From NCBI RefSeq assembly GCF_022440805.1, contig NZ_JAKNTK010000001.1, forward strand, positions 3,988,344 through 4,020,343: a DNA stretch of 32,000 bases, written 5' to 3'. Source of the stretch: Holdemania massiliensis. Lineage in GTDB: Bacteria; Bacillota_I; Bacilli_A; Erysipelotrichales; Erysipelotrichaceae. The notes beneath the pieces are model-generated. The model did no database searches. It saw only the letters and a program-made list of their open reading frames with translations, and was not told the DNA's origin. Position numbers and translations under genes: made by a program. How positions within the stretch are numbered: position 1 is the first letter of the stretch; each line of letters opens with the position of its first letter. Of the stretch, positions 9,703-31,515 are shown piece after piece.

Positions 9703-9731
9703 ATTATAGTAGCAGAAATCGCCGATGTAAA
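9703..9731 (-). promoter_or_regulatory. Sigma-A-type promoter of the metG T-box leader (TTTACA-17-TATAAT)
   Basis: -35 TTTACA at 9731-9726 and -10 TATAAT at 9708-9703. The spacer counts to 17 nt. Confidence 0.7.
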
Positions 9732-9797
9732 GCCTTATTCTTTGCCATTCCTGCTTTTTTCTTACGTTTGTTTCACTACCTCTTCACTGATAAAGCA

Positions 9798-9806
9798 TGC
9801 TATAAT
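9798..9806 (+). promoter_or_regulatory. Extended -10 (TGcTATAAT) upstream of the prepilin-like gene
   Basis: TG at 9798-9799 and TATAAT at 9801-9806. No good -35 element. Confidence 0.3.
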
Positions 9807-9833
9807 GGTTATTACAGAGGCGAGGTTATAATT

Positions 9834-10640: not shown

Positions 10641-10741
10641 AATTCTTACAACTCCATGACATTCTTCCCGTTCATCAATTTTTATCCTGATGAATTTCTC
10701 TAATCTTCTGTAAGCCCCTGATGGGTGCAGGAGGAAATTAG

Positions 10742-11104
10742 ATGAAAAAATTATGGATGATCGCTTTAACAACAATACTGTTATTCAGTGCTGCCGGTTG
10801 CGGAAAGGAAAAGAAACCAAGCCCGACTCCGGAAGCTACCCCCAGTCCGGAAATTTCAGAACCGATAAAAAGTCCGGATACTTCTGGATCGGAAGAGAAA
10901 ACAATTACTGGCAAGATCAGCGAGATTAAAAATGTCATGTTTGTATTGGATGACGGTCAAGATGCTTATGTCTTTCCATTAGAAGAAGGAACAACGTTGG
11001 AAGGAATTCAGGATGGGGATCAGGTTCAGGTTACCTATACCGGAGAACTGAGTCTTACTGGCGACAGCGAATTAAATACCGTGAAGGTTGAGAAAATAAA
11101 ATAA
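10742..11104 (+). CDS. Small lipoprotein of unknown function
   Basis: Signal peptide with lipobox FSAAGC. Pro/Ser/Thr-rich linker, then a roughly 70-aa beta-rich domain. GGAGGA RBS. Confidence 0.7.
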   Translation: MKKLWMIALTTILLFSAAGCGKEKKPSPTPEATPSPEISEPIKSPDTSGSEEKTITGKISEIKNVMFVLDDGQDAYVFPLEEGTTLEGIQDGDQVQVTYTGELSLTGDSELNTVKVEKIK

Positions 11105-11209: not shown

Positions 11210-11238
11210 TTGCAATCCCCCAGCATCAGTGGTAGAAT
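11210..11238 (+). promoter_or_regulatory. Candidate promoter TTGCAA-17-TAGAAT for the Ntn-hydrolase gene
   Basis: -35 at 11210-11215 and -10 at 11233-11238. The spacer counts to 17 nt. Confidence 0.4.
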
Positions 11239-11275
11239 GCTTAATGTTTTGTATATCAAATTATTTGGAGGAACT

Positions 11276-12478: not shown

Positions 12479-12714
12479 AACAAAACATCGAGGAACAGAA
12501 AAAGTAGTCAGAACAAAACCCCAGCGAGCTGATACAGAGTGGAAGGTCAGCGGTACTGATTCTGATGAAAACGCATCTGGGAGATGGCTTTCTGAAACCA
12601 GTAGGAAAGTCCGATTATCCGCGTTAAGGATCTGAGGAGGCCGGACAGACCGGCAATTAGAGTGGCACCGCGAATCCATCGTCTCTAGCTTAGGCTGGGG
12701 ACGATTTTTATTTT
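12479..12714 (+). promoter_or_regulatory. T-box leader upstream of the OppA-family lipoprotein gene; specifier uncertain (CGC Arg favoured, AAC Asn possible)
   Basis: Stem I helices: CATC/GATG (12486-89 / 12583-86), CAGA/TCTG (12496-99 / 12576-79) and TCAGAA/TTCTGA (12508-13 / 12560-65). AGTA S-turn present. Specifier loop reads TGAAAACGCA (12566-12575). T-box core AATTAGAGTGGCACCGCG at 12655-12672. Terminator ATCGTCTCTAGC/GCTGGGGACGAT plus T-run at 12678-12714. Confidence 0.75.
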
Positions 12715-12865
12715 CCCTAATGGGTTCTGGAAAGGAGTGAGAGGATGATCCAGATAGTACAGTTTCAAGTTGACAACCGAAATCGCCCGACCCATCATCC
12801 CGAGAAGCGTTACCGACGATGCTTGCTTAATCCAGATGCTTCAAACTCAAGAAAGGAAAATGAAC

Positions 12866-14494
12866 ATGAAAAAAATCAATTTACTTCTCTGCGCAGGCTT
12901 ATTAATGCTAAGCACTGCCTGCTCTTCTAACCCTTCCTCATCTACGCCAACTCCGCAAACAGCACAGAACGCCATTACCGTTGCCGTCGGCAGCCAGATC
13001 ACCACGCTGGATCCCGGCTACAATACAGAAACTGTCAACAATTACATTTTAGCTCATACCGTTTCCAGCCTGATGACTAAAGATGAAAATGGCACCGTCA
13101 TTCCGGAGCTGGCTGAGGAATACACCGTCAGTGAAGATGGACTGACCTACACCTTAACATTAAAGGAAGGTCTGACCTGGAGCGATGGTCAGGCCCTGAC
13201 CTCCCAGGATTTCAAATACGCGATTTTACGAAATCTGACTTATGGAGCCGATAATTCCTGGGCGATCTACAATCTGACAACCTATCTCAAAGGCGCGGAA
13301 GAGATTGCTTCCAACACCGATCTGGATGCCTCCGCGATTGAAATTGAAGGTGTTGAAACACCGGATGATTCCACGCTGGTACTGAATTTAAAACAACCGT
13401 GTGCTTTCTTTATCAATCTGTTGACCGGCAATGTCTGGGCACCGCTCAGAGCTGACTTTGCGGATGCGCATGATTCAACTTGGGCATTAAAGCCTGGTTA
13501 TCCAAGCATTGGAGCCTATCAGCTGGCCGAATGCAATGAAAATGAAAAAGCGGTGATCGTCAAAAATGACAGCTATTACAAAGCTGACGAAATCACGCTG
13601 GATCAAATCACCTTCCTCGTCATGCCTGACAGTGATGCTCAATCGTTAGCTTATAAAAACGGTGAAATTGATGTGGCACTGAATGTTCCTGTTGATGTCG
13701 GCGTCAATTATCCAAATCAGAATGAAGTCTGGAATATCCCTTCACCTACTTCTTATTTCATCGCTCTCAATTCCGGAGCGACTGCCCCGGAAGCACTGAA
13801 AGAAGCAAAAGTGCGCAAAGCGCTGGCGATCTCGATCGACAAACAGGCTCTGGCTTCAACCTTGGGACCGGAACAATACTACCAGGCACTGGGCGGCTAT
13901 GTTCCTGCCGGTCTGAATGGGATTGATCAGGATTTCCGGAAGGAAGCCGATGCGAAAGGAACAATGCAGGCCTATGATCCAGAACAAGCGAAAGCCTTGT
14001 TAAAGGAAGCCGGCTATGATGAAACTCATCCGCTGAAAATCAAATATAAGTATTCTTCTTCCTTTATCCATTCCGATGTTGCTCAGATTCTCGAAGCGAT
14101 GTGGAAAAATATCGGGATCGACTGTGAATTGGAAGTCGTTGAATCCGGTGTCTTCTATAATCAGATTGACAATGGTGATTTTGAACTTTCCCGTTATGGC
14201 TACACGGCCAGTGATGATCCTTCTCAGTTTCTGACCTTGTGGACAACCGGTCAGCAAGTGGTAGCCGCCGTGGATGATCCGGCTTATGACAAAATGGTAG
14301 CCGAGGCCGCGGCACTGATTGATCACACCGAATATATGGAAGCTCTGCACGCGGTGGAAGAATATCTTGTGGAAGAACAGGCTTACGTCATTCCGCTGTT
14401 CAGCTACAACACGCCGATTCTTAAAAGTGAAAAGATCCAGAATGCGACAAAGAAGGGAACAACGCCATTCTACGGTTATGTCACTTTGCAATAA
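12866..14494 (+). CDS. ABC-type peptide/nickel substrate-binding lipoprotein (family 5, OppA/DppA-like), orphan
   Basis: MKKINLLLCAGLLMLSTAC lipoprotein signal peptide; about 540 aa, typical family-5 SBP length and sequence character. Start 12866 (or 12860) is preferred over the track's 12770, which would lie in the leader region. Confidence 0.8.
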   Translation: MKKINLLLCAGLLMLSTACSSNPSSSTPTPQTAQNAITVAVGSQITTLDPGYNTETVNNYILAHTVSSLMTKDENGTVIPELAEEYTVSEDGLTYTLTLKEGLTWSDGQALTSQDFKYAILRNLTYGADNSWAIYNLTTYLKGAEEIASNTDLDASAIEIEGVETPDDSTLVLNLKQPCAFFINLLTGNVWAPLRADFADAHDSTWALKPGYPSIGAYQLAECNENEKAVIVKNDSYYKADEITLDQITFLVMPDSDAQSLAYKNGEIDVALNVPVDVGVNYPNQNEVWNIPSPTSYFIALNSGATAPEALKEAKVRKALAISIDKQALASTLGPEQYYQALGGYVPAGLNGIDQDFRKEADAKGTMQAYDPEQAKALLKEAGYDETHPLKIKYKYSSSFIHSDVAQILEAMWKNIGIDCELEVVESGVFYNQIDNGDFELSRYGYTASDDPSQFLTLWTTGQQVVAAVDDPAYDKMVAEAAALIDHTEYMEALHAVEEYLVEEQAYVIPLFSYNTPILKSEKIQNATKKGTTPFYGYVTLQ

Positions 14495-18380: not shown

Positions 18381-18406
18381 ATTTGTTAGTTTAAACTAAC
18401 TTAAGC
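18381..18406. promoter_or_regulatory. Operator copy A: ATTTGTTAGT-ttaaa-CTAAC-TTAAGC (core palindrome GTTAGTTTAAACTAAC, 18385-18400)
   Basis: Perfect 16-bp palindrome, 25 nt upstream of the permease start codon. Repeated 68 bp away (copy B). Confidence 0.5.
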
Positions 18407-18448: not shown

Positions 18449-18475
18449 ATTTGTTAGTCGCATCTAACCTTAAGC
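18449..18475. promoter_or_regulatory. Operator copy B: ATTTGTTAGT-cgcat-CTAAC-cTTAAGC (GTTAG-N6-CTAAC, 18453-18468)
   Basis: Shares ATTTGTTAGT, CTAAC and TTAAGC blocks with copy A, with the same 6-nt half-site spacing. Confidence 0.5.
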
Positions 18476-18615
18476 TTGTTCAGTCTACCATGTTCCAGCC
18501 AAAAACGCAAGCTTCCCTTTTCTCCTTTCGTATGGCAGTTTTTGCAAATCTTGAAAACTGATCTTTCAGAAGAGCACCGAAACTTCGTCTTCGCCTGAAT
18601 GAAAAACCGCCCATT

Positions 18616-18644
18616 TTGCCTGAAACGAAGAACTATGATACACT
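18616..18644 (+). promoter_or_regulatory. Candidate promoter TTGCCT-17-TACACT (TG-extended) for the RR-HK-SBP-reductase operon
   Basis: -35 at 18616-18621 and -10 at 18639-18644, preceded by TGa. It would leave a very short leader, so the real start codon may be ATG 18672. Confidence 0.35.
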
Positions 18645-18659
18645 GGAAAGACAGAGGAA

Positions 18660-20174
18660 ATGAGGGGCGTTATGACACAGACTGAATCTTCTTTATGCCG
18701 TGTTTTTCTGGTTGACGATGATCTTCTTGTACTGGATGATCTGCGGGATCTGATCGATTGGGAAGCAGAGGGCTTCATTCTGACAGGCACGGCGGGCAAT
18801 GGGGAACAGGCACTGGAACGGCTGGCTCAGACACCCGCAGATCTGGTGCTGGTGGATATTGAAATGCCGCGGTTAAACGGGCTGGCTTTCATCCGGCAGC
18901 TGCGGCAACAGGATCCGCAAATCCAAACGCTACTTCTGACAGCGTTTTCCCGTTTTGATTACGCCCGCGAAGCTGTGTCACTGGGTGTGTATAATTATAT
19001 CCTCAAACACGAACTGACCGCAGAAGGACTGCTCGAAAATCTGCGCGGCATGCGGGAGCAATGGGAACGCCAGAGAACTTCCCGTTATCTTGATGAACAG
19101 GCGCGGTTTCGACAGCTGCTTTTTACCGGAGATCACATTGACTTTTCCGACGTTGGATTCAGCAGCCCACATTCTGGAATCGGTTTGGTTTGTCTGCGGC
19201 GTCTGCCTTCGCTCCATGAATTGATCTCTTTCAAAGCAACAGAAGAGACCGACCACCTTTTTGCGCAGCTTCAGCAAGCCCTGCAGCCCTTGCGCAAAAC
19301 CGCTGTTTTTCTTGTTTTTCTCCAATCCGTCAATGAATGCTGGATCGCTGTGGAAGCCGATCCTCAGCTTGCCAGTGTTCCGTATGAATTTTGTACTGCG
19401 CTGCGAAAGAGCTTGGAAAACATTCTGGCTCCGATGGGGCTGTTGGTCAGTCCGGTTGCGCAGGATCTGTCTGAACTGCGCCGATTGTATCATGAGATGA
19501 ATGAGCGCCAGAATCAGTTGTTTTATTTTCCTAAACAGCGCATCACCCTGCTTCATGAATGTCCGGATGCCATGCCGTATGAGGCTTCGGATTGGGAAAT
19601 TCAATTAGCTCAGATCGATACTCAGGCTAGCCTGTGCCAAACGTCAACGGCGTTTTTAAACGCTCTCGATCAGGCTCGGCCGGCTTTGCCGCAGATTCTT
19701 CTGGCCGTGAAGCTCCTGCTTCAAAAGCTTCAGAAGCGAACAAGGATCAGTGAATTGTCTGAGGATTTTTCAGCATGGAAAACAATCTGTACCTATCCGG
19801 CTTTATGCGACTTTGTCCGCCGTTGGCTGCCGCTTCAGCCCCAGCCGCAGACCAGCCGCAAAACCGACTTTATGATCCGCTACCTGCAGGATCACTGTGC
19901 CGATGAAAACGTTCTTGACGATCTTTCGCAGACCCTGCAGATGAATCGCGAGTATTTAAGCAAACTGTTAAAGAAGGAAACCGGCATGACCTTGGCGCAG
20001 ATGTTGTTGGATCTGCGGCTGCAGAAAGCAATGCGGCTCTTGAAACAAAAGGATCTCAAGATTTATGAGGCAGCCCGGCAATGCGGATTCCACTCCAGTC
20101 AATACTTTGCGATCGTATTTTATAAAAAATATCATGTTTATCCCAGCGATGTATTAAAGGAGCCGTATGTATGA
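18660..20174 (+). CDS. Response regulator with C-terminal AraC-type HTH (YesN-like)
   Basis: REC domain (VFLVDDD ... LVLVDIEMPRLNG ... LLLTAF). Long linker. C-terminal AraC HTH (ARQCGFHSSQYFAIVFYKKYHVYPSD). Confidence 0.9.
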   Translation: MRGVMTQTESSLCRVFLVDDDLLVLDDLRDLIDWEAEGFILTGTAGNGEQALERLAQTPADLVLVDIEMPRLNGLAFIRQLRQQDPQIQTLLLTAFSRFDYAREAVSLGVYNYILKHELTAEGLLENLRGMREQWERQRTSRYLDEQARFRQLLFTGDHIDFSDVGFSSPHSGIGLVCLRRLPSLHELISFKATEETDHLFAQLQQALQPLRKTAVFLVFLQSVNECWIAVEADPQLASVPYEFCTALRKSLENILAPMGLLVSPVAQDLSELRRLYHEMNERQNQLFYFPKQRITLLHECPDAMPYEASDWEIQLAQIDTQASLCQTSTAFLNALDQARPALPQILLAVKLLLQKLQKRTRISELSEDFSAWKTICTYPALCDFVRRWLPLQPQPQTSRKTDFMIRYLQDHCADENVLDDLSQTLQMNREYLSKLLKKETGMTLAQMLLDLRLQKAMRLLKQKDLKIYEAARQCGFHSSQYFAIVFYKKYHVYPSDVLKEPYV

Positions 20175-21940
20175 AGCGTAAAGACATCAAGACCTGGCTT
20201 GTATCGCTGCTTCCGCCCCGACTTTCGGTAAAGCTGGCCGCTGCGCTGGGGGCATTGGTTCTGGTGATGACCAGCGTCACCAGCTTTGTCACTTATCAAT
20301 ACTTCGCTCACATCCTGACCCAGGAAAATCTGAAAAAAGATGCGCAGGTGCTCCGCCAGAATGCCCAGCAGCTGGAAGGCTTTATCCGTGAACTGACAGT
20401 TCTTTCCCGCAGTCTGTTGGCCGATCCGCAGCTGCAGCAGTTCTGCCACACCGCGGATCCGGACTATTTCCAAAAGGAAGCGGCAGCGGATTTATTAACC
20501 CGGACGCTGTCGGTTCAGGATCTGATCCACAGCGCGCTGATTCACCACGAAGATCAGGTGCTCTGGAACCTGTATCCGCTTGATCATACCTTTGATCCGC
20601 TTGCCCAATCTCAGAAAACAAGACAGCTGACTGGATTTACCGAAGCCTTCCTGCTGAAATCCGGCGTGGAACAGCTGCGTCTGGCGGCTTATCACACGCC
20701 GATTGCCGATTTAGTTCATCCCCAGCAGAAAATCGGAGAGCTGTGGATTCTGCTTGATCTGCGGCAATTGGAAACGATGATTCAGGCATGGAATCTGCCT
20801 CAGCAGGAAATCACGCTGATGCAGAATCAGACGGTGCTGATCGCTTCCCCTTCTGGCCTGAATGAACAACAGCTGAACAAACTGGCCAACGATCAGCCCT
20901 TTCCCTCGCTCCAGTCGGTTCGCGGCGGATTTCTGCTGAGCAGTCCGGTGGCCGGTACGCCTTATACCTTATTCTCTTATCGATCCAAGGCCGCACTGCG
21001 CGGACAGGCGTCCTTTCTGATCGTGTTTTTCAGCTTGTTCTCGCTGCTCATCTTCCTTTTATTCGTGATGATTCTCTCCCGCATTGTCCGTCAGTTTACC
21101 GCACCGTTATCCACTTTGACGGCCGGCTTGAATCAATTTGCCGCCGGTGATCTGAACACCCAGATTACCCTGCACAGTCACGATGAGCTGGAAATGCTGG
21201 GCGATACTTTCAATTCGATGGTTGTCCGCATACATGAGCTTTTAGATCAGGCTGTTGAGGATGAAAAAATCCGCAGGAAGCTGAAATTTGATATGATGAT
21301 CTCCAAAATCCATCCGCATTTTATCTACAATACGTTAAACTCTGTCATCGTGATGGCTCGCCGAGCTGGGAATCAGGAGGTTGTCGATATGGTGCGTGCC
21401 TTAATTCTGATCCTTCAGGATGGCATGGCGGTGCATGAGGACCTGTTGATGGACACCATCGAACGGGAACGAGCGGTCATTGAGGCGTATGTCACCATCC
21501 AGAATTATCGCTACAAGCAGAAATTCAGCGTCGTTTACGACATCGACCCAGCGCTGAACGAGCTGCTAATCGCCAAAAACATTCTCCAGCCGTTAGTTGA
21601 AAATGCGATTTTCCACGGCATCATCCCCAAAGAGGGACCCGGACAGCTGACGCTATCCATTCAGCGCCAAAACGATCAGCTGCATGTCGAGGTTCGTGAT
21701 GACGGCGTGGGACTGAGCGCCGAACTGGCCAGCCGCATTGAACAAGGCTCCGCCGCCCTGAATGCTCATCGGGAAGCCGAGAAAAACAGTGTCCATGCGA
21801 TTGCGCTGGTCAATGTCTGCGAACGGCTGGAATTCCTTTACGGCGATCCTGTGACGCTGCACGTCGAAAGTGAGCTGGGGAAGGGTTCCGCATTCATCTT
21901 TGATCTGCCGATCATAGAGAAAGGAGGGCTCCCACAATGA
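20171..21940 (+). CDS. Sensor histidine kinase (YesM/LytS-type His_kinase + HATPase) with two TM helices, a roughly 250-aa extracytoplasmic sensor domain and HAMP
   Basis: HPHFIYNTLNSV phospho-His region. N-box QPLVENAIFHG. G-boxes DDGVG and GKGSAF. HAMP after TM2 (FLIVFFSLFSLLIFLLFVMIL). ATGA overlap with the RR gene. Confidence 0.9.
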   Translation: MKRKDIKTWLVSLLPPRLSVKLAAALGALVLVMTSVTSFVTYQYFAHILTQENLKKDAQVLRQNAQQLEGFIRELTVLSRSLLADPQLQQFCHTADPDYFQKEAAADLLTRTLSVQDLIHSALIHHEDQVLWNLYPLDHTFDPLAQSQKTRQLTGFTEAFLLKSGVEQLRLAAYHTPIADLVHPQQKIGELWILLDLRQLETMIQAWNLPQQEITLMQNQTVLIASPSGLNEQQLNKLANDQPFPSLQSVRGGFLLSSPVAGTPYTLFSYRSKAALRGQASFLIVFFSLFSLLIFLLFVMILSRIVRQFTAPLSTLTAGLNQFAAGDLNTQITLHSHDELEMLGDTFNSMVVRIHELLDQAVEDEKIRRKLKFDMMISKIHPHFIYNTLNSVIVMARRAGNQEVVDMVRALILILQDGMAVHEDLLMDTIERERAVIEAYVTIQNYRYKQKFSVVYDIDPALNELLIAKNILQPLVENAIFHGIIPKEGPGQLTLSIQRQNDQLHVEVRDDGVGLSAELASRIEQGSAALNAHREAEKNSVHAIALVNVCERLEFLYGDPVTLHVESELGKGSAFIFDLPIIEKGGLPQ

Positions 21941-23217
21941 AGGCCTATCGCATTGTTTTTCTTCTGCTGACCCTGACGCTGGCGCTTTTTCTCTATAGCG
22001 CTTTTTCCGCCCCACGTTTGACGCCGGAACCCTCGCAGAAAGAAGTGATTACAGTCTGGGGCTGGGATGATTTTCTGCCGGATGCGTTTGCGGAGTATCA
22101 GAAATCTCATCCCGATGTCGCGCTTAATTACACCGTCGTTGAAAAAAGTGAATATCTGCAGCGCTTTAAACTGGCGCTGGCACTCAATCAGCCCTTGCCG
22201 GACATCTGCATTCTCGAAAGTGAAACGCTCGACGGCATCAACGGAGCCGAGCTGTTTATCGATCTGGAAGCCTCTCCGTATTTCCTGCCGCGGCAGGAAG
22301 TTCTGGAATTTCGTCTGGCTCAGTTTGAAAATGAACTCGGTCATCTGTGGGCTGTGCCGGCTACCTTATCCGCCAGCGGCGTCGCTTATAACCGCACTGT
22401 GGCCCAGGCGTTTCTGGCAACCGAGGATCCAGTTCAGGTGGGAATTGTTTTCAGCAGCTGGGCCGATGTTATCAGCAAGGGCATGAAGTTCAAGGAACAA
22501 TTCCCAGATCGGGCCATGTTTGCCTCACTGGAAGATGCCGCCGTGATGTTGTTTGGACAATCACGCACGCCGTATATTCAAGACAACACGCTGCTTCAGC
22601 CCTACCGTTTCCTCAATGCCTTCCAGATTCTCGACGCCCTGCAGGAGGCTGGCCTGGTCTTCTCCCTGCAGCAGTATTCGCCGCAGTGGATGAACTCGCT
22701 GGAAACCGATCAGGTGTTTTTCTATCCGTGCTCACTCTGGCTGATGTCCATGGGTATTTTTCATACCGGACAAGCCTGGGGCTTTACCCGTGCGCCCAGC
22801 GGCAGCTTTGCCTGGGGCGGTACCGTCTGGGCGATTCCCAAAACCAGCACCCATGCCGCGACAGCCTGGGAATTCATGCAGACAGTGCTGCTTTCGCCTT
22901 CCGGTGCGGCTTATGCCAAAAATCATGGCACCGGAACTTTGATCAGCTACAGTCCGGCTTACAATGAAGAGGGATATTCAGATCTGATCATGGAGGATTT
23001 CGGCGGTCAGAATATCGGCAAGATGTATTTGGATCAGATTTTCCCGGAAGTTCAGACCCGTCCGGCGGGAGAGAACGAAGCGCTGCTGAAAGAAGTTTAT
23101 CTGCAGACTGTCCGAGCGATGATCGGCATGCCGGAAATGAATGGCGAACAGGCTTATGCCCTATTCTTAGAGCGGCTGCATCAGCGGCTGCCGGATTTAC
23201 AGGAGGAACCCGCATGA
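21937..23217 (+). CDS. Extracellular solute-binding protein (family 1 sugar-type SBP), N-terminally anchored, with no cognate transporter genes
   Basis: 426 aa. Hydrophobic N-terminus without a lipobox Cys. ITVWGWDDF and WGGTVWAIPKTSTHAATAWEFMQ are typical family-1 SBP blocks. ATGA overlaps with the genes on both sides. Confidence 0.75.
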   Translation: MKAYRIVFLLLTLTLALFLYSAFSAPRLTPEPSQKEVITVWGWDDFLPDAFAEYQKSHPDVALNYTVVEKSEYLQRFKLALALNQPLPDICILESETLDGINGAELFIDLEASPYFLPRQEVLEFRLAQFENELGHLWAVPATLSASGVAYNRTVAQAFLATEDPVQVGIVFSSWADVISKGMKFKEQFPDRAMFASLEDAAVMLFGQSRTPYIQDNTLLQPYRFLNAFQILDALQEAGLVFSLQQYSPQWMNSLETDQVFFYPCSLWLMSMGIFHTGQAWGFTRAPSGSFAWGGTVWAIPKTSTHAATAWEFMQTVLLSPSGAAYAKNHGTGTLISYSPAYNEEGYSDLIMEDFGGQNIGKMYLDQIFPEVQTRPAGENEALLKEVYLQTVRAMIGMPEMNGEQAYALFLERLHQRLPDLQEEPA

Positions 23218-24947
23218 ACTTGAAGAAAATCATCCCCGCGCTCTGTCTGATTTTGTGCTGCGGCTGCGCGTCTTCCTCCACTCATTGTCAAATTGACGGT
23301 TATTTAGGCCCGATGGAAATTGAAGTGCTGAGTGAAGATCAGCGCATTACCGCGATTCAGGTACTGAGCCATGCGGATACGCCGGAAATCGCAGATCCCG
23401 CCCTGGCCGACTTCATCGCTCAGATTTTAGAAAATCAAACGCTGCAGATCGATGCGGTCAATGGAGCAACCCAGTCCTGTGAAGCACTGCGCAAAGGAAT
23501 TGAGCGCTTGTTGAAACGGCAGGGTTTTACCGAGGAACAACTCTATGCCGCGCGCCCCCAAACGCCGCCTGTCCAAGAGGAAGCCTCAGAAATCTATGAT
23601 GTGGTGGTCATCGGCGGAGGCGGAGCTGGCTTAGCCGCGGCCGTCAGCGCCGCACGCCAGGGGGCTTCCGTTGCGGTGCTGGAAAAAGCCGACAGTCTGG
23701 GCGGCAATACAATCCGGGCTACCGCCATGTATAACTGTGTGGATGATCAGCTCCAGCATCCTTTGCAGATCATGGACAGCGAACAGCTTTTCTTTGAAGA
23801 AACCTTCAACGGCGGTCATCAGAAAGCAAAACCGGAGCTGGTGCGGATCCTGACTTCCCAAGCCGATGAGGGTCTGGCGTTTTTGCAGGAGCTGGGGTTA
23901 GAAATCGACACGGTGATCGACAACTGTTTGGGCGGCGAGCATGCCCGCGGTCATTATTCCAAGGCTCATAACGGTACAGATTTCATTCAGGTTTTGAGCG
24001 ATGCCTGTGTTCGGGAACAGGTTGACTTTTATCTGAATACACGGGCGAAAGCGCTGATTCAGGAGGGTTCTGCCGTGATCGGAGTCCAGGCTGTCCAGCA
24101 ACGTCAGCCGATCCAGTTCCAAGCGCGGCAGGGTGTGATCTTAGCGACTGGCGGCTTCGGCTACAATGTGGAAATGCGGATGCAGTATGATCAGAGCCTA
24201 ACCGGGGATCTGCTTTGCAGCAATACGCCGGGAACAGTGGGCGATGGACTTATCATGGCGCACGCCATTGGGGCTTCACTGATCGACATGGAATATATAG
24301 AGCTTTATCCGATGGCGGATATTTACGACGGCGGACTGCACAACTCCATTCCCAATGCGATCAATCATGGGATTTTGGTCAACACCGAAGGCGATCGGTT
24401 TATCCGTGAGGATGCCGGCCGGGATGAACTGGCCCAGGCGATCCGGGCGCAGGATCACGGGTTTGTCTATTCCCTCGCCGACGATGATTTTTCCTCGCTG
24501 CAGGAAGACCGCGACTTCCTGGAGGGGCTAGTACTGATGGGACAAGTGGTCAAAGCCGATACGTTGGAAGACCTGGCTTATCAGCTGGAACTGGATTTCA
24601 AGGTTCTGGAAGCAGCGGTGAATGACTACAACCGCAGTGTTGAACAGCAGTACGATCCCCGCTTTCAGCGCAGAACGTTAATCAATAAAATTGATCACCC
24701 ACCATTTTACGCCACCGCCAAGACCGTCACTGTGCATCACACGCTGGGCGGTGTTGAAATCAATGAACAAGCCCAGGTTCTCGATCAAAAGAAACAGCTG
24801 ATTCCCCGGCTTTATGCGGCCGGCGAGGTGACCGGCGGGATTCACGGCGCCAATCGCCTGGGCGGCAACTCGTTTCCTGACTGTATCGTCTTCGGACGGA
24901 TTGCCGGAACGGAGGCTGCCGCTCAGCCGCCGCGGCCAATATCCTGA
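23214..24947 (+). CDS. Extracytoplasmic lipoprotein flavin reductase 2: N-terminal FMN_bind + FAD-dependent fumarate/urocanate-reductase-like domain
   Basis: Signal peptide with an atypical Cys-rich lipobox LILCCGC. FMN_bind domain with DAVNGATQS (23451-23477). YDVVVIGGGGAGLAAAVSAARQGASVAVLEK. HHTLGG and GANRLGGNS motifs. Confidence 0.85.
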   Translation: MNLKKIIPALCLILCCGCASSSTHCQIDGYLGPMEIEVLSEDQRITAIQVLSHADTPEIADPALADFIAQILENQTLQIDAVNGATQSCEALRKGIERLLKRQGFTEEQLYAARPQTPPVQEEASEIYDVVVIGGGGAGLAAAVSAARQGASVAVLEKADSLGGNTIRATAMYNCVDDQLQHPLQIMDSEQLFFEETFNGGHQKAKPELVRILTSQADEGLAFLQELGLEIDTVIDNCLGGEHARGHYSKAHNGTDFIQVLSDACVREQVDFYLNTRAKALIQEGSAVIGVQAVQQRQPIQFQARQGVILATGGFGYNVEMRMQYDQSLTGDLLCSNTPGTVGDGLIMAHAIGASLIDMEYIELYPMADIYDGGLHNSIPNAINHGILVNTEGDRFIREDAGRDELAQAIRAQDHGFVYSLADDDFSSLQEDRDFLEGLVLMGQVVKADTLEDLAYQLELDFKVLEAAVNDYNRSVEQQYDPRFQRRTLINKIDHPPFYATAKTVTVHHTLGGVEINEQAQVLDQKKQLIPRLYAAGEVTGGIHGANRLGGNSFPDCIVFGRIAGTEAAAQPPRPIS

Positions 24948-24974
24948 ACTTGAACAGAATGTCCGGTTTTTAAC

Positions 24975-25003
24975 TCGACCTCAACTTGTGATTTTTTTAT
25001 AAT
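24975..25003 (+). promoter_or_regulatory. Weak candidate internal promoter TCGACC-17-TATAAT ahead of reductase 3
   Basis: Perfect -10 at 24998-25003 but a poor -35. No terminator seen between reductases 2 and 3. Confidence 0.25.
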
Positions 25004-25028
25004 TTCCTTATTCAAGGAGGAAAGAGAA

Positions 25029-26819
25029 ATGAAGAAATTACTTGCCCTGACCCTGGGCGCCTGTTTGGCTCTGGGCTTAGGCGGCTGTGCGAATACGCCG
25101 GCTGAAAAAACACCGGAACCTCAACCTGAATCCGGCAACGAACAGTTTGATATCGTCATCGTCGGCGCAGGCGGAGCCGGCCTGGCGGCCGCGGTCGAGG
25201 CGCACGAACAAGGTGCAGACAACATTCTGGTCTTAGAGAAGATGTCCTTTGCGGGCGGAAGCACCACGATGGCTTTCGGCGGCTTTAACTGTACGAACTC
25301 CCGGTTTATGGACGAACAGGGAAAAGAAGAAACACCGGTCATGTTGGTGGATAAAATCATCAAGAACGGCGCCGGCTTTGCGGATGTGGATATGGCAGGC
25401 GTCATCGCCATTGAAACGCCGAAAGTCATCGAATGGCTGGACGGCTTCGGATCGGAATGGGGAAAGATCCGCTACGCTGATCTGCATTGCCCAACTGACG
25501 GCACCATTCCCGGTGTGGAATTAGTCCGTGTTTTAAAAGAACAAGCCGAGAAAAACGGCATTGAAATCCGCTACAACAGTCCGGCTGTCGATCTGACAAC
25601 AGATGAACACGGACGGGTTAACGGCGTGCAGGTCAAAGACGCCCATGGTGAATATACGATTGATGCCCAAGCTGTCATTCTGGCGACCGGCGGTTATGAA
25701 AGCAATCCGGAAATGATCGCCAACTATGACAATCCTGGACTGGCCAACATTCATTTAGCTCCAAGTCAGGGCAATATGGGCGATGGTATCGTTATGGCGG
25801 AAAAACTGGGAGCGGAACTGGTCAACATGGATCTGATTCAGCTGTCCTGTGCAGTTGCGCCGTTCTCCATCCAGATGCAGCTGCCGATCAAAAACAACGG
25901 CGTCGTCTTCGTCAACAAGGAAGGCAAGCGCTTCACCAATGAATACAGCGAAGCCAGTTCAGATCGCCGGATTACTGAAGATATCCTGAAACAAACGGAT
26001 GCGGAATGCTTCGGTGTTTATAATGAAACGATATACCAGACATTCATGGCGATTGAAGAGAAGGATTTCTTCGATGAATACCGGATGACTGGCATCGATA
26101 ACAGCGGCACGGTGATCCAAGCGGATACGCTGGAAGAACTGGCTGAAAAGATGGGTGTGGATCAGGAAGCATTCCTGGCCACGATGAGCAGCTTAAAGAC
26201 AGACGGCATCGGCAATGAAGAAGTTGTCAAGCTGGCTGATACCTACAAATCGGGCCCTTACTATGCCGTGAACTTAACGCCGGGCGTTATGGACACGCTG
26301 GGCGGTGTCAGAGCCGACACAACCGGACGTGTTCTCAACCAGGAAGGCAAGCCGATTAAGGGTCTGTATGCTGCCGGGGAAGTCATCGGTAATGTTCAGG
26401 GTGCTTATTATTCTGTTGGTCTGGGTGAAGCCGTCGTCTTCGGCCGGCTCTCTGCCCGCAATGCGATCGAATACATTCAGGACCGCCAAGGCTTAACCGA
26501 ACACGTTCCATTTGACCGCACTCCGGTCCAGTCAGAAGGTTCAGAAACCGTCAAAGGCAGCTTCACAGACGGTACTTATACCGGCGAAGGTCAGGGCAAT
26601 AACGGACCGATTAAGGTTGAAGTCATCGTTAAAGACGGAAGCATCACTGAAATCAACGTTTTAGAACAGGCTGAAACAGCGAATATCTATGCCGGGGCTG
26701 CAGAACAGTTCATTCCAGAGCTGATCAGAACGCAGAATCTGGATCTTGATGCCGTTTCCGGCGCTACCAATTCCAGCAATGGCATCCGGGAAGCCGTCAA
26801 GAACGCGCTGGGACAATAA
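25029..26819 (+). CDS. Extracytoplasmic lipoprotein flavoprotein 3: N-terminal FAD_binding_2 domain + C-terminal FMN_bind domain (permuted order)
   Basis: Lipobox LGLGGC. FDIVIVGAGGAGLAAAVEAHEQGADNILVLEK. C-terminal FMN_bind domain (about 26550-26816) with DAVSGATNS (26748-26774). VMDTLGG and GNVQGAYYSVGLG sit where the paralogs have HHTMGG and G-x-NR-x-GGN. Confidence 0.85.
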   Translation: MKKLLALTLGACLALGLGGCANTPAEKTPEPQPESGNEQFDIVIVGAGGAGLAAAVEAHEQGADNILVLEKMSFAGGSTTMAFGGFNCTNSRFMDEQGKEETPVMLVDKIIKNGAGFADVDMAGVIAIETPKVIEWLDGFGSEWGKIRYADLHCPTDGTIPGVELVRVLKEQAEKNGIEIRYNSPAVDLTTDEHGRVNGVQVKDAHGEYTIDAQAVILATGGYESNPEMIANYDNPGLANIHLAPSQGNMGDGIVMAEKLGAELVNMDLIQLSCAVAPFSIQMQLPIKNNGVVFVNKEGKRFTNEYSEASSDRRITEDILKQTDAECFGVYNETIYQTFMAIEEKDFFDEYRMTGIDNSGTVIQADTLEELAEKMGVDQEAFLATMSSLKTDGIGNEEVVKLADTYKSGPYYAVNLTPGVMDTLGGVRADTTGRVLNQEGKPIKGLYAAGEVIGNVQGAYYSVGLGEAVVFGRLSARNAIEYIQDRQGLTEHVPFDRTPVQSEGSETVKGSFTDGTYTGEGQGNNGPIKVEVIVKDGSITEINVLEQAETANIYAGAAEQFIPELIRTQNLDLDAVSGATNSSNGIREAVKNALGQ

Positions 26820-26858
26820 CCAGCGGAACACTCAATTCAAAATAAGATATATCCAAGC

Positions 26859-26897
26859 AGAAAGGAAGCGCCGGAATTAGGGTTTCCTTTCTTTTGC
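26859..26897 (+). terminator. Rho-independent terminator ending the reductase operon
   Basis: AGAAAGGAA (26860-26868) pairs with TTCCTTTCT (26884-26892), followed by TTTGC. Confidence 0.6.
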
Positions 26898-27167
26898 TTC
26901 CCGTCTGAGCAGAATAAGAAAATAAGCGGCATCGACAACTCAAAAGATTGTTTTGAGCTTTTACGCTTCTCCTTGATTGATTCCGCGGTGAAACGATGCT
27001 CCGCCTTTTCAGACGCTTTGGCTTCCTGACTTTGATTGGACCATCAGGAATTGTTTGAAAGAGGTATACTCTAAAATCCTTTATTGATATAATTAGAAGT
27101 AATCGTGGTATGGGGATGGTTTTTCCTTCGCTTTTTAAGCCGCGGCATTTCTTTTACAGAACGGAAG

Positions 27168-27785
27168 ATGATGATGACCTATTCAAACAGTAAAACCAAG
27201 CAGCGAATTTTAGACGTTGCCGTTACCTATTTCACCTTGTATGGTTATGAAGGTACCAATCTTGAAGACATTGGCAAAGCCCTGGGCTTATCCCGGGGTC
27301 CGCTTTATTATTATTTTAAGAATAAAAATGATCTTTATCTGGCCGCTATCCGATATCAGATGGAAATTTCCTCACAGGATCTGCAGCGGATTTATGCGGA
27401 AGACCTGGATGTTTTCAGCAAAATCTGCCGGGATCTGACCTACTGTACCTCCTATCGGAAGATTAACCGGGATACCGATCATAACACCGGCGAAGGGCCG
27501 ACGCTGGAAGAAATTGCGAAATACAGCAGGCACTTGTTCTCCCTGCGCAAAACGGCTTTAACAACAGCTCAGGCACAGAATATCATCCGTCCGGATGCCA
27601 ACCTCAATGAAATGACAAGCTTTATCTATCTGTATTACTATGGGATTCAGGGCTTCAATCATGAAAACGAGCTGTATCACATGCTGGACTTTAACCCCAA
27701 CGAGCAGGCCATGGAAATCTTCCGGGAGACGTTCATTGCCAAATACGCGGTGAACCCTGAGAAATGGCTCAAAAAGGAAACTTGA
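27168..27785 (+). CDS. TetR/AcrR-family transcriptional regulator
   Basis: KQRILDVAVTYFTLYGYEGTNLEDIGKALGLSRGPLYYYFKNKNDLY is a TetR_N HTH. Start at the ATGATGATG (27168) is preferred over the track's GTG at 27105. Confidence 0.85.
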   Translation: MMMTYSNSKTKQRILDVAVTYFTLYGYEGTNLEDIGKALGLSRGPLYYYFKNKNDLYLAAIRYQMEISSQDLQRIYAEDLDVFSKICRDLTYCTSYRKINRDTDHNTGEGPTLEEIAKYSRHLFSLRKTALTTAQAQNIIRPDANLNEMTSFIYLYYYGIQGFNHENELYHMLDFNPNEQAMEIFRETFIAKYAVNPEKWLKKET

Positions 27786-27940: not shown

Positions 27941-29134
27941 TTATTGATTCAGAATAATCTCCACCCATTGCCGGCCGGCAGCTTCTGCTTCTTCCAGCTG
28001 CTTTGGTGATGGCTTAAACCGGACTTTGAATGCCGGCATAACCTGGATTCGCAGCTGTTTCAGGCGTTCTTCCAGGTGCGCAAAGGCTTCGCCGCTCCAG
28101 CCATAGCTGCCAAAAACCGCGGCATACTTGCCGCCGTGAATCACCGGATTCATCAATGACAGAACAGCCCATACCGGCGGCAGGGCTTCCGCCAGAATCG
28201 TCGGCGATCCCAGCAAAAATCCTCGCGCGTTTTCAATCTTTTCCACAACTTCGGCAACGGATGTCTGTGTCAGTTCAACCAGCTCAGCCTGCCAGCCGGC
28301 ACTTTCGATTCCGCGGGCTGCCGCCTGCGCCAGCTGTTCGGTATATCCATAGGCGCTGACATAAGCCAAAATCAGTTTGTTTTCCAGCTGCGGTTCTGCA
28401 TTCCATTTTCGATACTGCGCAAACATTTCCGGCAGCCTGCAGTCCAAGATCGGCCCATGACCCGGACAAATCATGTTCAGTTTCAGAGGTTCAACTTTAT
28501 CCAGCGCCTTCTGCATAAACGGCCGGAACGGCTTTAAAATATGATCATAATAATACTTTAATGCCCGCTCATAGCCATTGTGATCCTGAACTTCGCTCAG
28601 CCGCAGCCCCTCAAACGCATAATGCGCTCCGAAGGAATCACAGGTAAAGAGAATTCCATCTTCCTGAACCCAGGTATACATGGTATCCGGCCAATGCAGA
28701 TTCGGGACGATCATAAACTGCAATGTTTTTCCACCCAGGTCCAATGTCTGCCCCTCTTTCACCGCCAGCGCTTTAAAGTCACGGTTGACGATCTCTTTCA
28801 AAAACTGCAGCGCCGCCGGACTGCCGATCACGGTCAGATTCGGATTGATCGCCAAACATTTTTCGATCGAACCGGCATGATCCGGTTCTGTATGATTCAC
28901 GATTAAATAATCGACGTCACAAAGCGAAACTACCTTCTCAATCTTCTGTTGAAATTCTTCAAAGAAAGGAAGTTTTACCGTTTCGATCAAGGCGTTTTTT
29001 TCCGTTCCCTTCAAAAGATAAGAATTATAAGTCGTTCCAAATTCAGTTTCCATAATGATATCAAAAACCTTCAGCTGGGCATCCTGAACCCCTGTCCAGA
29101 TTAAATCCTGCGTTAACTGTTCGTTGACTGTCAT
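27941..29134 (-). CDS. Flavodiiron protein (FprA-type A-type flavoprotein; O2/NO reductase)
   Basis: Metallo-beta-lactamase-like domain with HTEPDH, LHWPD, CDSFGAHY and PGHGP diiron ligand motifs. C-terminal flavodoxin domain (YVSAYGYTE, GSPT, FGSYGWSGEA). Start MTVNEQ at 29134 with AGGAG 8 nt upstream. Confidence 0.9.
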   Translation of the reverse strand: MTVNEQLTQDLIWTGVQDAQLKVFDIIMETEFGTTYNSYLLKGTEKNALIETVKLPFFEEFQQKIEKVVSLCDVDYLIVNHTEPDHAGSIEKCLAINPNLTVIGSPAALQFLKEIVNRDFKALAVKEGQTLDLGGKTLQFMIVPNLHWPDTMYTWVQEDGILFTCDSFGAHYAFEGLRLSEVQDHNGYERALKYYYDHILKPFRPFMQKALDKVEPLKLNMICPGHGPILDCRLPEMFAQYRKWNAEPQLENKLILAYVSAYGYTEQLAQAAARGIESAGWQAELVELTQTSVAEVVEKIENARGFLLGSPTILAEALPPVWAVLSLMNPVIHGGKYAAVFGSYGWSGEAFAHLEERLKQLRIQVMPAFKVRFKPSPKQLEEAEAAGRQWVEIILNQ

Positions 29135-29554
29135 CTTCATCACTCCTTTATTCATTTTTCCCATTCCCTTAGAAATTAACAGGAAACTTTTTTCAGCAGA
29201 TTCATCATAATCAAAACGATCCTTGATTTCTATTGTAATGCTCATATCAAGCATGAAAGGAGCAGAGTAAGCCGGACTGATCCTGTTTTTCAGAAGAAAC
29301 GATTCCGTTTCAGGATCATTTACGCTGCTTTCTCACTTTTCTTACGGGTCCTGATTTATCCTGATTTAATTATGATTACGAACAATTATAGACCTTTTTC
29401 GCGCAATCTGCCATGAAATCCGGATTGATTCCGATAACGAATCGTGCTATATTGTAGATAGATTTTGAGGCTATAACTATAATTTCACATGGGGAAGGAT
29501 AGTTAATGTCCATCCGCATGGGTTTTTTATTATAGTGGCATAGGAGGACAGTTC

Positions 29555-29755
29555 ATGGTCACAGGAAAAGTAAAATGGTTTAATGCAGAAAAAGGCTACG
29601 GATTCATTACCACCGATGAAGGGAAAGATGTTTTCGTTCATTATTCCGCGATTCAGATCGACGGTTTTAAAACGCTGGATGACGGCGATGCCGTCAGCTT
29701 TGAAGTCGTACAGAGCGACCGCGGCGAACAGGCTGCGAATGTCTGCAAGCTTTAA
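29555..29755 (+). CDS. Cold-shock protein (CspA family, CSD)
   Basis: 66 aa. [12 protein letters not shown] (RNP1) and VFVHYS (RNP2). AGGAGGA RBS. Confidence 0.95.
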
Positions 29756-29773
29756 TTTCACTGACAAAGCGAC

Positions 29774-29798
29774 AAAAGCACTCCTGTGAGTGCTTTTT
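29774..29798 (+). terminator. Rho-independent terminator after csp
   Basis: GCACTC-ctgt-GAGTGC followed by TTTTT. Confidence 0.7.
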
Positions 29799-29857
29799 CT
29801 TTACTCGGGCAGAGTGTTTTTAAGGCTCTGCCTGATCCTTCTTTCTAATCCAATTTC

Positions 29858-30439
29858 CTAAGCTGCCGCATAAATGAAACAGGCGACATTCACTTCCGCC
29901 TTTTGCTTCATCCAATAGCACTCTACCGGAAACGGAAGTTCCTGGGTATCCAATTCCAACGTATCATTCTGACGGTCCTGAACAAACAGCCACAGCGCAT
30001 CCGGGTAATCCTTCGGTTTTGTCCCCTTCAGCAGATGTTCCAGCTCAGCACTGAGCTTTCTTTCCTTCTTCACTTTAACAAATTCCAGTCCCTGATTCTG
30101 ATCCAGCCGCTGCTTGTGCAGAACCAGCTGACTGATCATCTTCACGAGCCATTCCCCATTCCAGGGCTCCATCAGTCCCTTTTGAATTTTCCAGCAGGGA
30201 TAGCCGGAAATCGTCTGCGGGGAAAGGATCAGGACAGGCTCTTTAAACGATGCGGCAAGCTGCGGACTGATCGCCGCAGAGGAGCAGAGAATCGTCTGAT
30301 CCCAGGTTTCTTTGGAAAGGGCAGTGTCTATAATTTGGATGTATTCAATGATAAGCTCACCCGTCTGATGACGGATGCGGTGAACCTGATCCTCGGCCTG
30401 CGGATCAAACGGGTCACATTGCAGGATTCTGATTTTCAT
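29858..30439 (-). CDS. Hypothetical protein, 193 aa, no recognisable motif
   Basis: Protein-like composition; the opposite-strand 190-aa ORF (29903-30475) is L/R/F-rich. GGAGG upstream. Candidate promoter TTGAAA-17-TATTTT upstream. Confidence 0.55.
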   Translation of the reverse strand: MKIRILQCDPFDPQAEDQVHRIRHQTGELIIEYIQIIDTALSKETWDQTILCSSAAISPQLAASFKEPVLILSPQTISGYPCWKIQKGLMEPWNGEWLVKMISQLVLHKQRLDQNQGLEFVKVKKERKLSAELEHLLKGTKPKDYPDALWLFVQDRQNDTLELDTQELPFPVECYWMKQKAEVNVACFIYAAA

Positions 30440-30518
30440 TGTGGTCTATCCTCCGATTCTGTTTTCAGTGTATGAATCAGTCTCGAAAAATATGTGTTCC
30501 TTTCCTGCCTTTCAAAGT

Positions 30519-30547
30519 GAAAAAAAGGGTCCGCAGTGGGATCCTTT
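30519..30547 (-). terminator. Rho-independent terminator after rubrerythrin
   Basis: Minus strand: AAAGGATCC-cactgc-GGACCCTTT followed by TTTTTC (9-bp stem including one G-T pair). Confidence 0.65.
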
Positions 30548-30559
30548 CAATCAGAGAAA

Positions 30560-31099
30560 TTAATAGTTTGCTTTTTCAACTTCAAAGAAGGATTTAGCAT
30601 AGCCGCACAGCGGGCACAGACCCGGAGCGTTCTTGCCGACCATGGTATAGCCGCAGATCTGGCATTTCCACATGACGTCTTCTTCTTTCTTGAAGACTTT
30701 GTCTTCCTTGACATTGCTTAACAGAGCCAGGTAACGTTCTTCATGGCGCTTTTCGATCTTCGCAACCATATCCATCTGTGCTGCGATCTTATTGAAGCCT
30801 TCTTCGCGGGCAACTTTGGCGAATTCTGCATACATATCCGTCCATTCATAGTTTTCACCATTGGCCGCATCCTGCAGATTGACGTCAGTTGTCGGGATCT
30901 GATCACCATGCAGAGCCTTGAACCACAGCATCGCATGTTCCTGTTCGTTGCGGGCGGTTTCCTCAAAGATGTTGGCGATCTGTTCCATGCCTTCAGCACG
31001 AGCCTTCATCGCATAGTAAGTGTACTTGTTGCGAGCCTGAGATTCTCCGGCAAAAGCGCTCATTAAGTTCTGTTCAGTTCTTGATCCTTTTAATTCCAT
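30560..31099 (-). CDS. rbr: Rubrerythrin
   Basis: N-terminal diiron four-helix domain ([19 protein letters not shown] ... EEHAMLW-type E-x-x-H motifs). C-terminal rubredoxin-like CQICGY...CPLCGY. Confidence 0.95.
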
Positions 31100-31515
31100 T
31101 GTTCTTTACCTCTTTCTTTCTCTTTTTCCTGTTTGTCTTTACACTCGTTGCAGCAGCCTTCCAACGAAATATTCAGATCTTCCACGCTGACGCCCATCTG
31201 GTCTTCAACCTGGCGGATCATCTGCTCCTCCACGGAGAATGAAACGTCGAAATACCGCTTACAGTATCGACAATAGAAGTGATGATGTTTTTTCGGATTT
31301 CCATCGTACATGAATCCGGTGCTGCGGTCCTGAAACTTCTGTATTTCGCCCATTTCCGTCAACAGATTCAAGTTGCGGTAGACGGTCGCGATCCCGATGG
31401 AGGGATCCGCCTGCTTCACTTTTTGATAAACCTGATCGGCGTTCAAGTGAATTCCTTCTCCGCGCATCACATCCAAGATCAGCTGGCGTTGCCTTGAATT
31501 CCTGCGAATCATCAT
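31090..31515 (-). CDS. Fur-family transcriptional regulator (PerR-like)
   Basis: 141 aa. DNA-binding helix [17 protein letters not shown] metal site. CRYC and CNEC Cys pairs. Overlaps the rbr start by 10 nt. Confidence 0.85.

Follow-up and report, generated by a model that had tools for sequence, protein, structure and literature searches.

The 32,000-nucleotide stretch of Holdemania massiliensis DNA analyzed here (contig NZ_JAKNTK010000001.1; "the window" below) carries, on its forward strand, five consecutive genes that encode a three-part sensor and two predicted surface reductases. Open reading frame (ORF) calls and Pfam matches place a YesN-type response regulator (RR) at 18660-20174, with a second ATG at 18672 as a possible start, a YesM/LytS-type membrane histidine kinase (HK) at 20171-21940, a family-1 solute-binding protein (SBP) at 21937-23217, and two lipoprotein flavin reductases, called reductase 2 (23214-24947) and reductase 3 (25029-26819). 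We think it fairly probable that these genes form an inducible "sense-and-reduce" cassette of gut Firmicutes, in which the sensor would control reductases acting on an extracellular compound. An earlier interpretation made from the DNA letters (the sequence-only reading) had given the same coordinates for all five ORFs, and the domains it predicted were each matched in Pfam for all five proteins.

The genes are tightly packed. The RR/HK, HK/SBP, and SBP/reductase 2 junctions are each a 4-nt ATGA stop/start overlap, exactly where the sequence-only reading had located them, and GGAG-type ribosome-binding sites were found 6 to 8 nt upstream of the HK, SBP, and reductase 2 starts, as that reading held, as well as upstream of the reductase 3 start. 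Reductases 2 and 3 are separated by 81 nt. The unit ends at ~26855-26899 (+) in an intrinsic-terminator-like hairpin followed by UUUUGCUU; its predicted fold (-20 kcal/mol, z -2.85; 3 of 200 shuffled sequences folded equally well) bears out the terminator proposed after reductase 3. The sensor had also been described as translationally coupled to both reductases. This probably applies to reductase 2, which overlaps the SBP gene by 4 nt, but not to reductase 3, which lies beyond the gap and has a promoter-like site of its own.

The RR combines a receiver domain (Response_reg, 1.1e-22), whose acceptor aspartate sits in an LVDIEMP context, with a C-terminal AraC-type helix-turn-helix (HTH_18, 1.6e-17; HTH_AraC, 3.6e-10), which is the arrangement of YesN-type regulators. 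In the HK, two transmembrane segments surround a ~235-residue extracellular dCache-like domain (weak dCache_1 match) and are followed by HAMP (8.7e-13), His_kinase (PF06580, 5.9e-15), and HATPase_c (9.9e-10) domains. Its His box reads HPHF, and the protein has the features of a YesM-type kinase; the NCBIfam model for TorS scored 44 bits, with a cutoff of 676.5. The SBP matched SBP_bac_8 (3.3e-15) and SBP_bac_1 (3.4e-11) and no NCBIfam family. Its N terminus is a hydrophobic helix that looks like an uncleaved anchor and has no lipobox cysteine, confirming what had been read from the sequence; the helix spans residues 3 to 23 in an AlphaFold2 model of poor quality (pLDDT 63.7, 11-sequence alignment).

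No BPD_transp_1 permease gene was detected among the larger window ORFs scanned with Pfam, and the FecCD ABC system of the divergent upstream operon has its own Peripla_BP_2 protein, in agreement with the claim that the locus holds no permease genes for the SBP. The flanks of the orthologous cassettes described below contain no BPD_transp_1 gene either. The SBP thus shares an operon with the HK and RR, with no cognate permease or ATPase, as a dedicated sensor SBP does, and we presume that it serves as the extracellular ligand receptor of the HK. Source databases label it "ABC transporter substrate-binding protein" or "multiple sugar transport system," which is misleading. The family is small, with 588 HMMER matches at E<=1e-3 and 69 at E<=1e-30 among 1.84 billion representatives. 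An exact-sequence look-up of the window SBP gave no match, and relatives were reached via homologues.

Two reductases with different active sites

Both reductases join an FMN_bind domain (PF04205, 6.7e-11 and 3.7e-15 in the two proteins) to a FAD_binding_2 domain. In reductase 2, FMN_bind is N-terminal (residues 29-101) and accompanies a FAD_binding_2 match of 8e-70, while in reductase 3 an N-terminal FAD_binding_2 domain (3e-60) precedes a C-terminal FMN_bind domain (residues 523-594). The flavinylation-type motifs read DAVNGAT and DAVSGAT, respectively. The D-x-x-x-G-A-T pattern is kept in all orthologues with an invariant GAT threonine, and the asparagine of the reductase 2 motif is a serine in H. 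massiliensis strain AP2. The FMN_bind domain and D-A-V-x-G-A-T motif that the sequence-only reading assigned to both enzymes were therefore recovered, but the domain of reductase 3 is C-terminal instead of N-terminal. By an eye-applied lipobox rule, a lipobox cysteine is present in both proteins and in every orthologue, as expected from the lipoprotein signal peptides attributed to them. The lipobox of reductase 3 is LGGC; that of reductase 2, LCCGC, is atypical at position -3, and its orthologues are canonical. These features support the prediction that both reductases are extracytoplasmic, flavinylated enzymes.

The best solved-structure relatives of both proteins are the Shewanella fumarate reductase Fcc3 and urocanate reductase UrdA (PDB 1qjd and 6t85), with E-values of 2e-81 and 3e-77 for reductase 2 and of 5e-59 and 1.6e-45 for reductase 3. 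In contrast to the Shewanella enzymes, neither Holdemania protein has a haem domain, and FMN_bind stands in its place. We mapped the active sites onto Fcc3 by multiple alignment of orthologues (HMMER, MAFFT). Reductase 2 keeps R402 (Fcc3 numbering), H504, and the arginine of GANRLGG, that is, the catalytic arginine and the carboxylate-binding Arg/His set. The R402 equivalent is the arginine of TTRD in the alignment, not that of the GKRF motif. Unlike Fcc3, reductase 2 has a tyrosine in place of H365 and lacks the E378/R381 proton path, both residues being replaced. Reductase 3 lacks the whole set and has no equivalents of H365, R402, H504, or R545: H365 is replaced by Ser, H504/H505 by Met/Asp, and the GANRLGG arginine by Tyr (GAYY), and the R402 column holds an Ala, with a 2-residue insertion and two arginines a few residues further on.

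The NCBIfam model TIGR01813 (flavocytochrome c subfamily) was passed by reductase 2 only (392.7, cutoff 285.45), and no NCBIfam equivalog cutoff was passed by either protein. As the full Fcc3/UrdA active-site set is found in neither, an identity as fumarate or urocanate reductase is not supported. Nevertheless, the site of reductase 2 appears to be of the two-arginine, enoate (fumarate/urocanate-type) kind, and its substrate is probably an alpha,beta-unsaturated carboxylate. Reductase 3 probably binds its substrate in a different manner, with a tyrosine-type site resembling that of some cinnamate reductases. Since the active sites are of two types, the pair probably handles two related substrates or two steps. 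The same division was described for the flavin reductases studied by Little et al., among which an Arg-type "clade 1" contains UrdA and CirD, and Tyr-type clades contain active cinnamate reductases (bioRxiv 10.1101/2022.12.26.521950). We also tried to equate reductases 2 and 3 with individual Cir enzymes and rejected this, as the mutant positions CirA Y634, CirC Y511, and CirD R716 misfit their lengths.

Enzymes of this kind could in principle do no more than remove a toxic unsaturated compound or excess reducing power, without conserving energy. Nothing in the window ties the reductases to a proton-motive or quinone-dependent chain, and inducible reductases for reactive enoates, such as acrylate reductases, are compatible with detoxification. 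We nevertheless regard this explanation as improbable. In the sister species, urocanate and cinnamate reduction by homologous enzymes enhances growth, and urocanate stimulates ATP synthesis. Furthermore, an extracytoplasmic site combined with FMN_bind is a hallmark of chain-fed reductases (PMC11334425).

Conservation of the unit and the promoter before reductase 3

The five-gene unit is real and conserved. The same five genes were found in the same order in seven gut-Firmicutes lineages: H. massiliensis (with strain AP2, L009) and H. filiformis DSM 12042 (L010), Dielma fastidiosa (L001-3), Hadza-gut contigs and a Bulleidia-labelled metagenome-assembled genome (MAG; L004/5, L012), other metagenome contigs (L006/7), an Erysipelotrichaceae MAG (L011), a "Christensenellaceae" MAG (L013/L016), and a Pseudoflavonifractor MAG (L017). 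The flanking genes are unrelated and differ in every lineage, so the five genes move together. At the SBP-reductase 2 junction, the two genes overlap or lie <=2 nt apart in every lineage, and the reductase 2-reductase 3 gap always measures 81 to 158 nt. The idea of a self-contained unit of sensor genes and both reductases, for which the sequence-only reading had named recurrence of the RR-HK-SBP-reductase order in relatives as a check, is thus supported by the comparison.

Protein identity to the window over all five genes is 96 to 99% in strain AP2 and 71 to 92% in H. filiformis DSM 12042. A gradient of identity to the window runs through the unit, from ~35% for the RR through 42 to 47% for the HK, 47 to 54% for the SBP, and ~57 to 58% for reductase 2 to 75 to 81% for reductase 3, the exception being the second reductase of the "Christensenellaceae" MAG (47%). 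Reductase 3 is thus the most conserved gene of the unit. The ratio of nonsynonymous to synonymous substitution rates (dN/dS) against H. filiformis was 0.108 for the RR, 0.100 for the HK, 0.065 for the SBP, and 0.055 for reductase 3, and that of reductase 2 was 0.12 against strain AP2, indicating that all tested genes are under purifying selection. In H. filiformis DSM 12042 (L010, ~10285-10300), a 1-nt insertion in reductase 2 (GACGGGAGGACTG, compared with GACGGCGGACTG in the window) splits the gene into two frames near residue 373; it represents either a real pseudogene of the type strain or a draft-assembly error.

These data bear on the suggestion that the sensor genes are the remnant of a sugar-uptake locus that sits beside the reductases by accident and does not regulate them. 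The SBP and kinase families are indeed typical of sugar-uptake regulators. However, sensor and reductase genes adjoin each other in one and the same order in seven lineages whose flanking genes are unrelated. Strong purifying selection acts on every sensor gene, and the cassette sensors form a monophyletic clade, which makes an accidental remnant exceedingly improbable. In particular, the low dN/dS of the SBP means that it is not a decaying transporter remnant, a possibility that the sequence-only reading had named as fatal to its own proposal.

A promoter-like site lies in the 81-nt gap before reductase 3, at 24975-25003 (+), with a weak -35 hexamer (TCGACC), a 17-nt spacer, and a TATAAT -10 hexamer (24998-25003). 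Upstream of it, alignment of the gaps revealed a conserved box, TTGAACAGAATGTCCGGTTTTT, at 24950-24971 (+), with the consensus TTgaACAaAATgTcc.g.TTtt. Box and -10 are conserved among gaps taken from lineages with only ~50% protein identity. All 8 loci, representing the 7 lineages, have one -10-like hexamer no more than 130 nt from the start of reductase 3, and in 8/8 the sequence ACA[GA]AA lies exactly 44 or 45 nt upstream of this hexamer. The Pseudoflavonifractor locus, which was obtained after the motif had been defined, fits this spacing; L016, likewise a later addition, has the same gap sequence as L013. The box has a single zero-mismatch match in the window. AraC-type activators usually act at promoters laid out in this way, with a conserved site beside a weak -35, and the phosphorylated RR is accordingly presumed to bind the box. 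Because the gap holds this conserved promoter, reductase 3 is probably the regulated target of the sensor.

A direct repeat, TT[CT]GCCTGAA, was also observed just upstream of the RR gene, at 18590-18599 and 18615-18624 (25 nt apart), and TTGCCTGAA also precedes the RR gene in H. filiformis and in the Pseudoflavonifractor locus. This repeat may belong to the sensor operon's promoter or operator.

The same layout invites the question of whether reductase 2 belongs to the sensor. It could be made at a basal level and either convert a precursor to the SBP ligand or destroy the ligand (negative feedback), leaving reductase 3 as the sole regulated effector. The (nearly) overlapped SBP-reductase 2 junction in every lineage, the constant presence of a separate promoter for reductase 3, and the different active sites of the two enzymes would all fit, as would a terminator-like hairpin that lies between the two reductase genes in the Erysipelotrichaceae MAG. 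On the other hand, tight operon packing is common and may carry no functional meaning, and in the window, transcription probably continues from reductase 2 into reductase 3, since the gap there forms no stable hairpin (z +1.04). To our knowledge, there is no precedent for a reductase acting as a sensor part, and we consider this feedback role very unlikely. A related version, in which reductase 2 would be a working part of the sensor that makes or consumes the SBP ligand at the cell surface or is handed its substrate by the SBP itself, reductase 3 alone being the output, strikes us as a long shot. If true, the cassette would be a four-part sensor that reads enzymatic turnover and not the mere presence of a compound.

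Origin of the sensor and proposed mechanism

To place the sensor among its relatives, we inspected the gene context of outgroups with ~30% identity. Two sensor trios adjoin sugar genes: that of L008 lies beside a second, transport-type SBP_bac_1 gene and a GH63-like glycosidase gene, and that of L014 beside a divergent sugar ABC transporter with GH42. In L015, an SBP without an RR-HK pair lies beside a GH43 gene and adjoins a dCache-HAMP-SpoIIE protein. The closest non-reductase relatives of the sensor, L018 to L020 (full trios in L018 and L019, HK-SBP only in L020), are found beside a conserved cluster of 2-hydroxyacid dehydrogenase, peptidase M20, and amino-acid permease genes, which is another non-sugar, non-ABC output of this sensor family. 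Neighbour-joining trees of the SBPs and of the kinases, built as rough distance trees without bootstrap, agree with each other and unite the eight reductase-linked loci as one clade, which lends indirect support to the pairing of SBP and kinase. Sugar importers occur only beside the outgroup sensors L008 and L014; the co-inherited neighbours of the cassette sensor are two flavin reductases.

The sequence-only reading had called the sensor "sugar-type." The L008 and L014 outgroups agree with this, and a profile of the SBP clade matched only sugar-binding proteins in the PDB (5ixp, 5e-28; the cellobiose-binding 8bfy, 9e-20; and arabino-oligosaccharide binders). However, equally close outgroups adjoin the peptidase M20/2-hydroxyacid dehydrogenase/amino-acid permease cluster, so the family is more versatile than the name implies. 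As an evolutionary history, the recruitment of a sugar-type sensor to reductases still seems broadly right.

Given these relatives, the SBP might sense a companion cue, such as a carbohydrate or cyclitol moiety, instead of the electron acceptor, the wiring being otherwise the same. With a hydroxycinnamate ester or glycoside (chlorogenate or feruloylated oligosaccharides, for example), the reductases would act on the unsaturated acyl part. This would be consistent with the sugar-binding PDB kin of the SBP and with the outgroup sensors that adjoin glycoside hydrolases and sugar ABC transporters. Additionally, CirA and CirB of H. filiformis reduce chlorogenate and rosmarinate esters (bioRxiv 10.1101/2022.12.26.521950), and reductase 3 has the Tyr-type site of those cinnamate-reductase clades. 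Nevertheless, the outgroups linked to peptidase and amino-acid genes indicate that the ligand class is not fixed in the family, and in none of the lineages does the cassette come with a glycosidase or esterase gene. We therefore view the companion cue as a minority possibility, the least improbable of the alternatives considered here.

In the mechanism that we favor, the transporter-less, membrane-anchored SBP would bind an extracellular small molecule and signal through the extracellular domain of the HK, which would phosphorylate the AraC-type RR. The RR would then bind the box at 24950-24971 and activate the weak-(-35) promoter before reductase 3, while reductase 2 would be co-expressed with the sensor, its gene being the last of the overlapping RR-HK-SBP-reductase 2 operon. 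Both reductases would be lipid anchored on the outer face of the membrane, and electrons would pass from a membrane electron-transfer chain to the covalent FMN of FMN_bind, on to FAD, and finally to a C=C bond of the organic acceptor. What the sequences show directly is the anatomy of the genes, their domains and motifs, the conserved synteny, the purifying selection, the conserved promoter and box, and the clade structure. We infer the SBP-kinase signalling, the binding of the RR to the box, the flavinylation, the catalytic direction, the energy conservation, and the identity of the ligand with the acceptor itself.

Several points weigh against this scheme. The sugar-binding kin of the SBP would fit an organic-acid acceptor poorly. 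When the box was sought before the RR gene and in the rest of the window, only chance-level two-mismatch matches came up; as no copy was found before the RR gene, the scheme does not account for how reductase 2 would be induced. If the insertion in H. filiformis DSM 12042 is real, reductase 2 is dispensable in that strain. Since reductase 3 has no arginine aligned with R402, it may catalyze something other than enoate reduction. Finally, the 32-kb window contains no ApbE/FmnB, PplA, EetAB, or Ndh2 gene, so that the electron supply to the reductases has to be assumed.

Parts of this logic have precedents. CuaDSR, XylFII-LytS-YesN, and HptA-HptS-HptR combine AraC-type regulators with LytS/YesM-type kinases. 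In Firmicutes, sensors composed of a kinase, an RR, and a dedicated SBP are an established type (PMC8050422 and PMC10384115). For CuaDSR of Ruminiclostridium cellulolyticum, which has a family-1 SBP, the sensor genes form a constitutive operon, and the cuaABC operon that the RR activates comes directly after it (PMC10384115). By analogy, the Holdemania sensor operon lies upstream of its presumed target promoter, but it includes reductase 2, and CuaD is a lipoprotein whereas the Holdemania SBP has a Cys-less membrane anchor. XylFII-LytS-YesN of Clostridium beijerinckii and HptA-HptS-HptR of Staphylococcus aureus likewise pair a dedicated sensor SBP with a kinase and an RR, but XylFII belongs to Peripla_BP_4 and HptA to SBP_bac_11 (PMC8050422). 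The known targets of all three systems are importers (cuaABC, xylFGH, and uhpT), while the presumed Holdemania targets are a surface reductase pair that imports nothing.

TorR, the RR of the TorT-TorS-TorR system, is of the OmpR type and not of the AraC type. TorT-TorS-TorR is an established transporter-less binding-protein sensor for a respiratory acceptor, with the same logic as that proposed here: a binding protein senses an extracytoplasmic acceptor and acts through a kinase and an RR to induce an extracytoplasmic reductase (PMC8050422). The components differ. TorT is a Peripla_BP_1 protein, TorS is a hybrid kinase with an HBM-like sensor, the output is a molybdoenzyme with a cytochrome (the torCAD trimethylamine N-oxide reductase), and the hosts are Gram negative (E. 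coli, Vibrio); in Holdemania, an SBP_bac_1/8 protein, a PF06580 kinase, an AraC-type RR, and lipoprotein flavin reductases are found in a Firmicutes host. The cassette thus lacks the family features of a Tor system, and the analogy is one of logic only.

The closest enzymatic precedents come from Little et al. (bioRxiv 10.1101/2022.12.26.521950), who reported ~50 flavin reductases in Holdemania, two-component systems adjoining those of H. filiformis, and H. filiformis enzymes that are induced by, and reduce, respiratory acceptors. Their reductases, from H. filiformis, Eggerthella lenta, and Sutterella wadsworthensis (UrdA, CirA-D, CrdA-D, and IrdA), resemble the present ones in the PF00890 domain, the signal peptides, a neighbouring regulator, and the genus; they are substrate induced, and both Arg-type and Tyr-type sites are described among them. 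Unlike here, the term solute-binding protein does not occur in that paper, nor are a five-gene unit, a pairing of reductases, or an internal promoter described there. Within the literature searched, we found no description of a YesM/YesN/family-1-SBP sensor joined to flavin reductases, of a fixed pairing of Arg-type and Tyr-type reductases, of the internal promoter, or of a mobile five-gene unit. The idea is less new than the sequence-only reading had rated it, as the two-component systems of Little et al. and TorT-TorS-TorR were already known. The arrangement varies on described ones, and its novelty is moderate. What is new is the conserved promoter in the 81-nt gap, with a box upstream of the -10 in all eight loci.

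Gut Erysipelotrichaceae have ~50 flavin reductases per genome, mostly without an assigned substrate, and a reductase pair with its own soluble, high-affinity ligand receptor would offer a practical route to deorphanisation. Metabolite libraries could be screened with the purified SBP, and a reporter could be built from the conserved promoter and box. More generally, the cassette would represent recruitment of the YesM/YesN/SBP sensor family, which annotators usually take to indicate sugar uptake, to an output without any import function.

Other features of the window

A third FMN_bind plus FAD_binding_2 reductase (636 residues, 4602-6512, minus strand) is encoded directly downstream of a MerR-family regulator gene (6566-7411, minus strand) and forms with it a second, different regulator-reductase pairing in the window. 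In the metagenome contigs L006/L007, the genes that come after the cassette encode a MerR protein and a reductase that has two FMN_bind domains.

The intergenic region that the cassette shares with the divergent FecCD-type ABC operon contains two copies of ATTTGTTAG-N6-CTAAC (palindromic core GTTAG-N6-CTAAC), at 18381-18400 and 18449-18468, 68 nt apart. These sites, which are present in H. filiformis too, are probably the operator of the transporter operon.

Two T-box leaders were detected. One (12482-12689, plus strand; full length, 115.7 bits) lies directly upstream of a lone SBP_bac_5 (oligopeptide-type) gene at 12770-14494 (plus strand), which has no adjacent permease genes. The other (9488-9695, minus strand; 122 bits) lies upstream of a methionyl-tRNA synthetase gene, called as ORF 7523-9517 with a GTG start; since the T-box overlaps the first 30 nt of this ORF, the true start is probably further downstream.

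The G+C content jumps from ~0.32-0.35 at positions 1 to 3000, which hold a PTS EIIBC gene and a LysR regulator gene, to ~0.49-0.54 from position 3001. The G+C content is low again at 9000-11000, where a PilJ-type pilin gene is located. These shifts may mark the edges of acquired DNA. A gene for a choloylglycine-hydrolase-family (CBAH/AAT) protein (11210-12346, plus strand), possibly a relative of bile-salt hydrolases, separates the pilin gene from the T-box-controlled binding-protein gene. Beyond the cassette, a TetR regulator gene (27105-27785, plus strand) precedes an oxidative-stress cluster (27941-31515, minus strand) that encodes a flavodiiron-type protein (ODP beta-lactamase fold plus flavodoxin), rubrerythrin, a Fur-family (PerR-like) regulator, and a 193-residue protein with no Pfam match.

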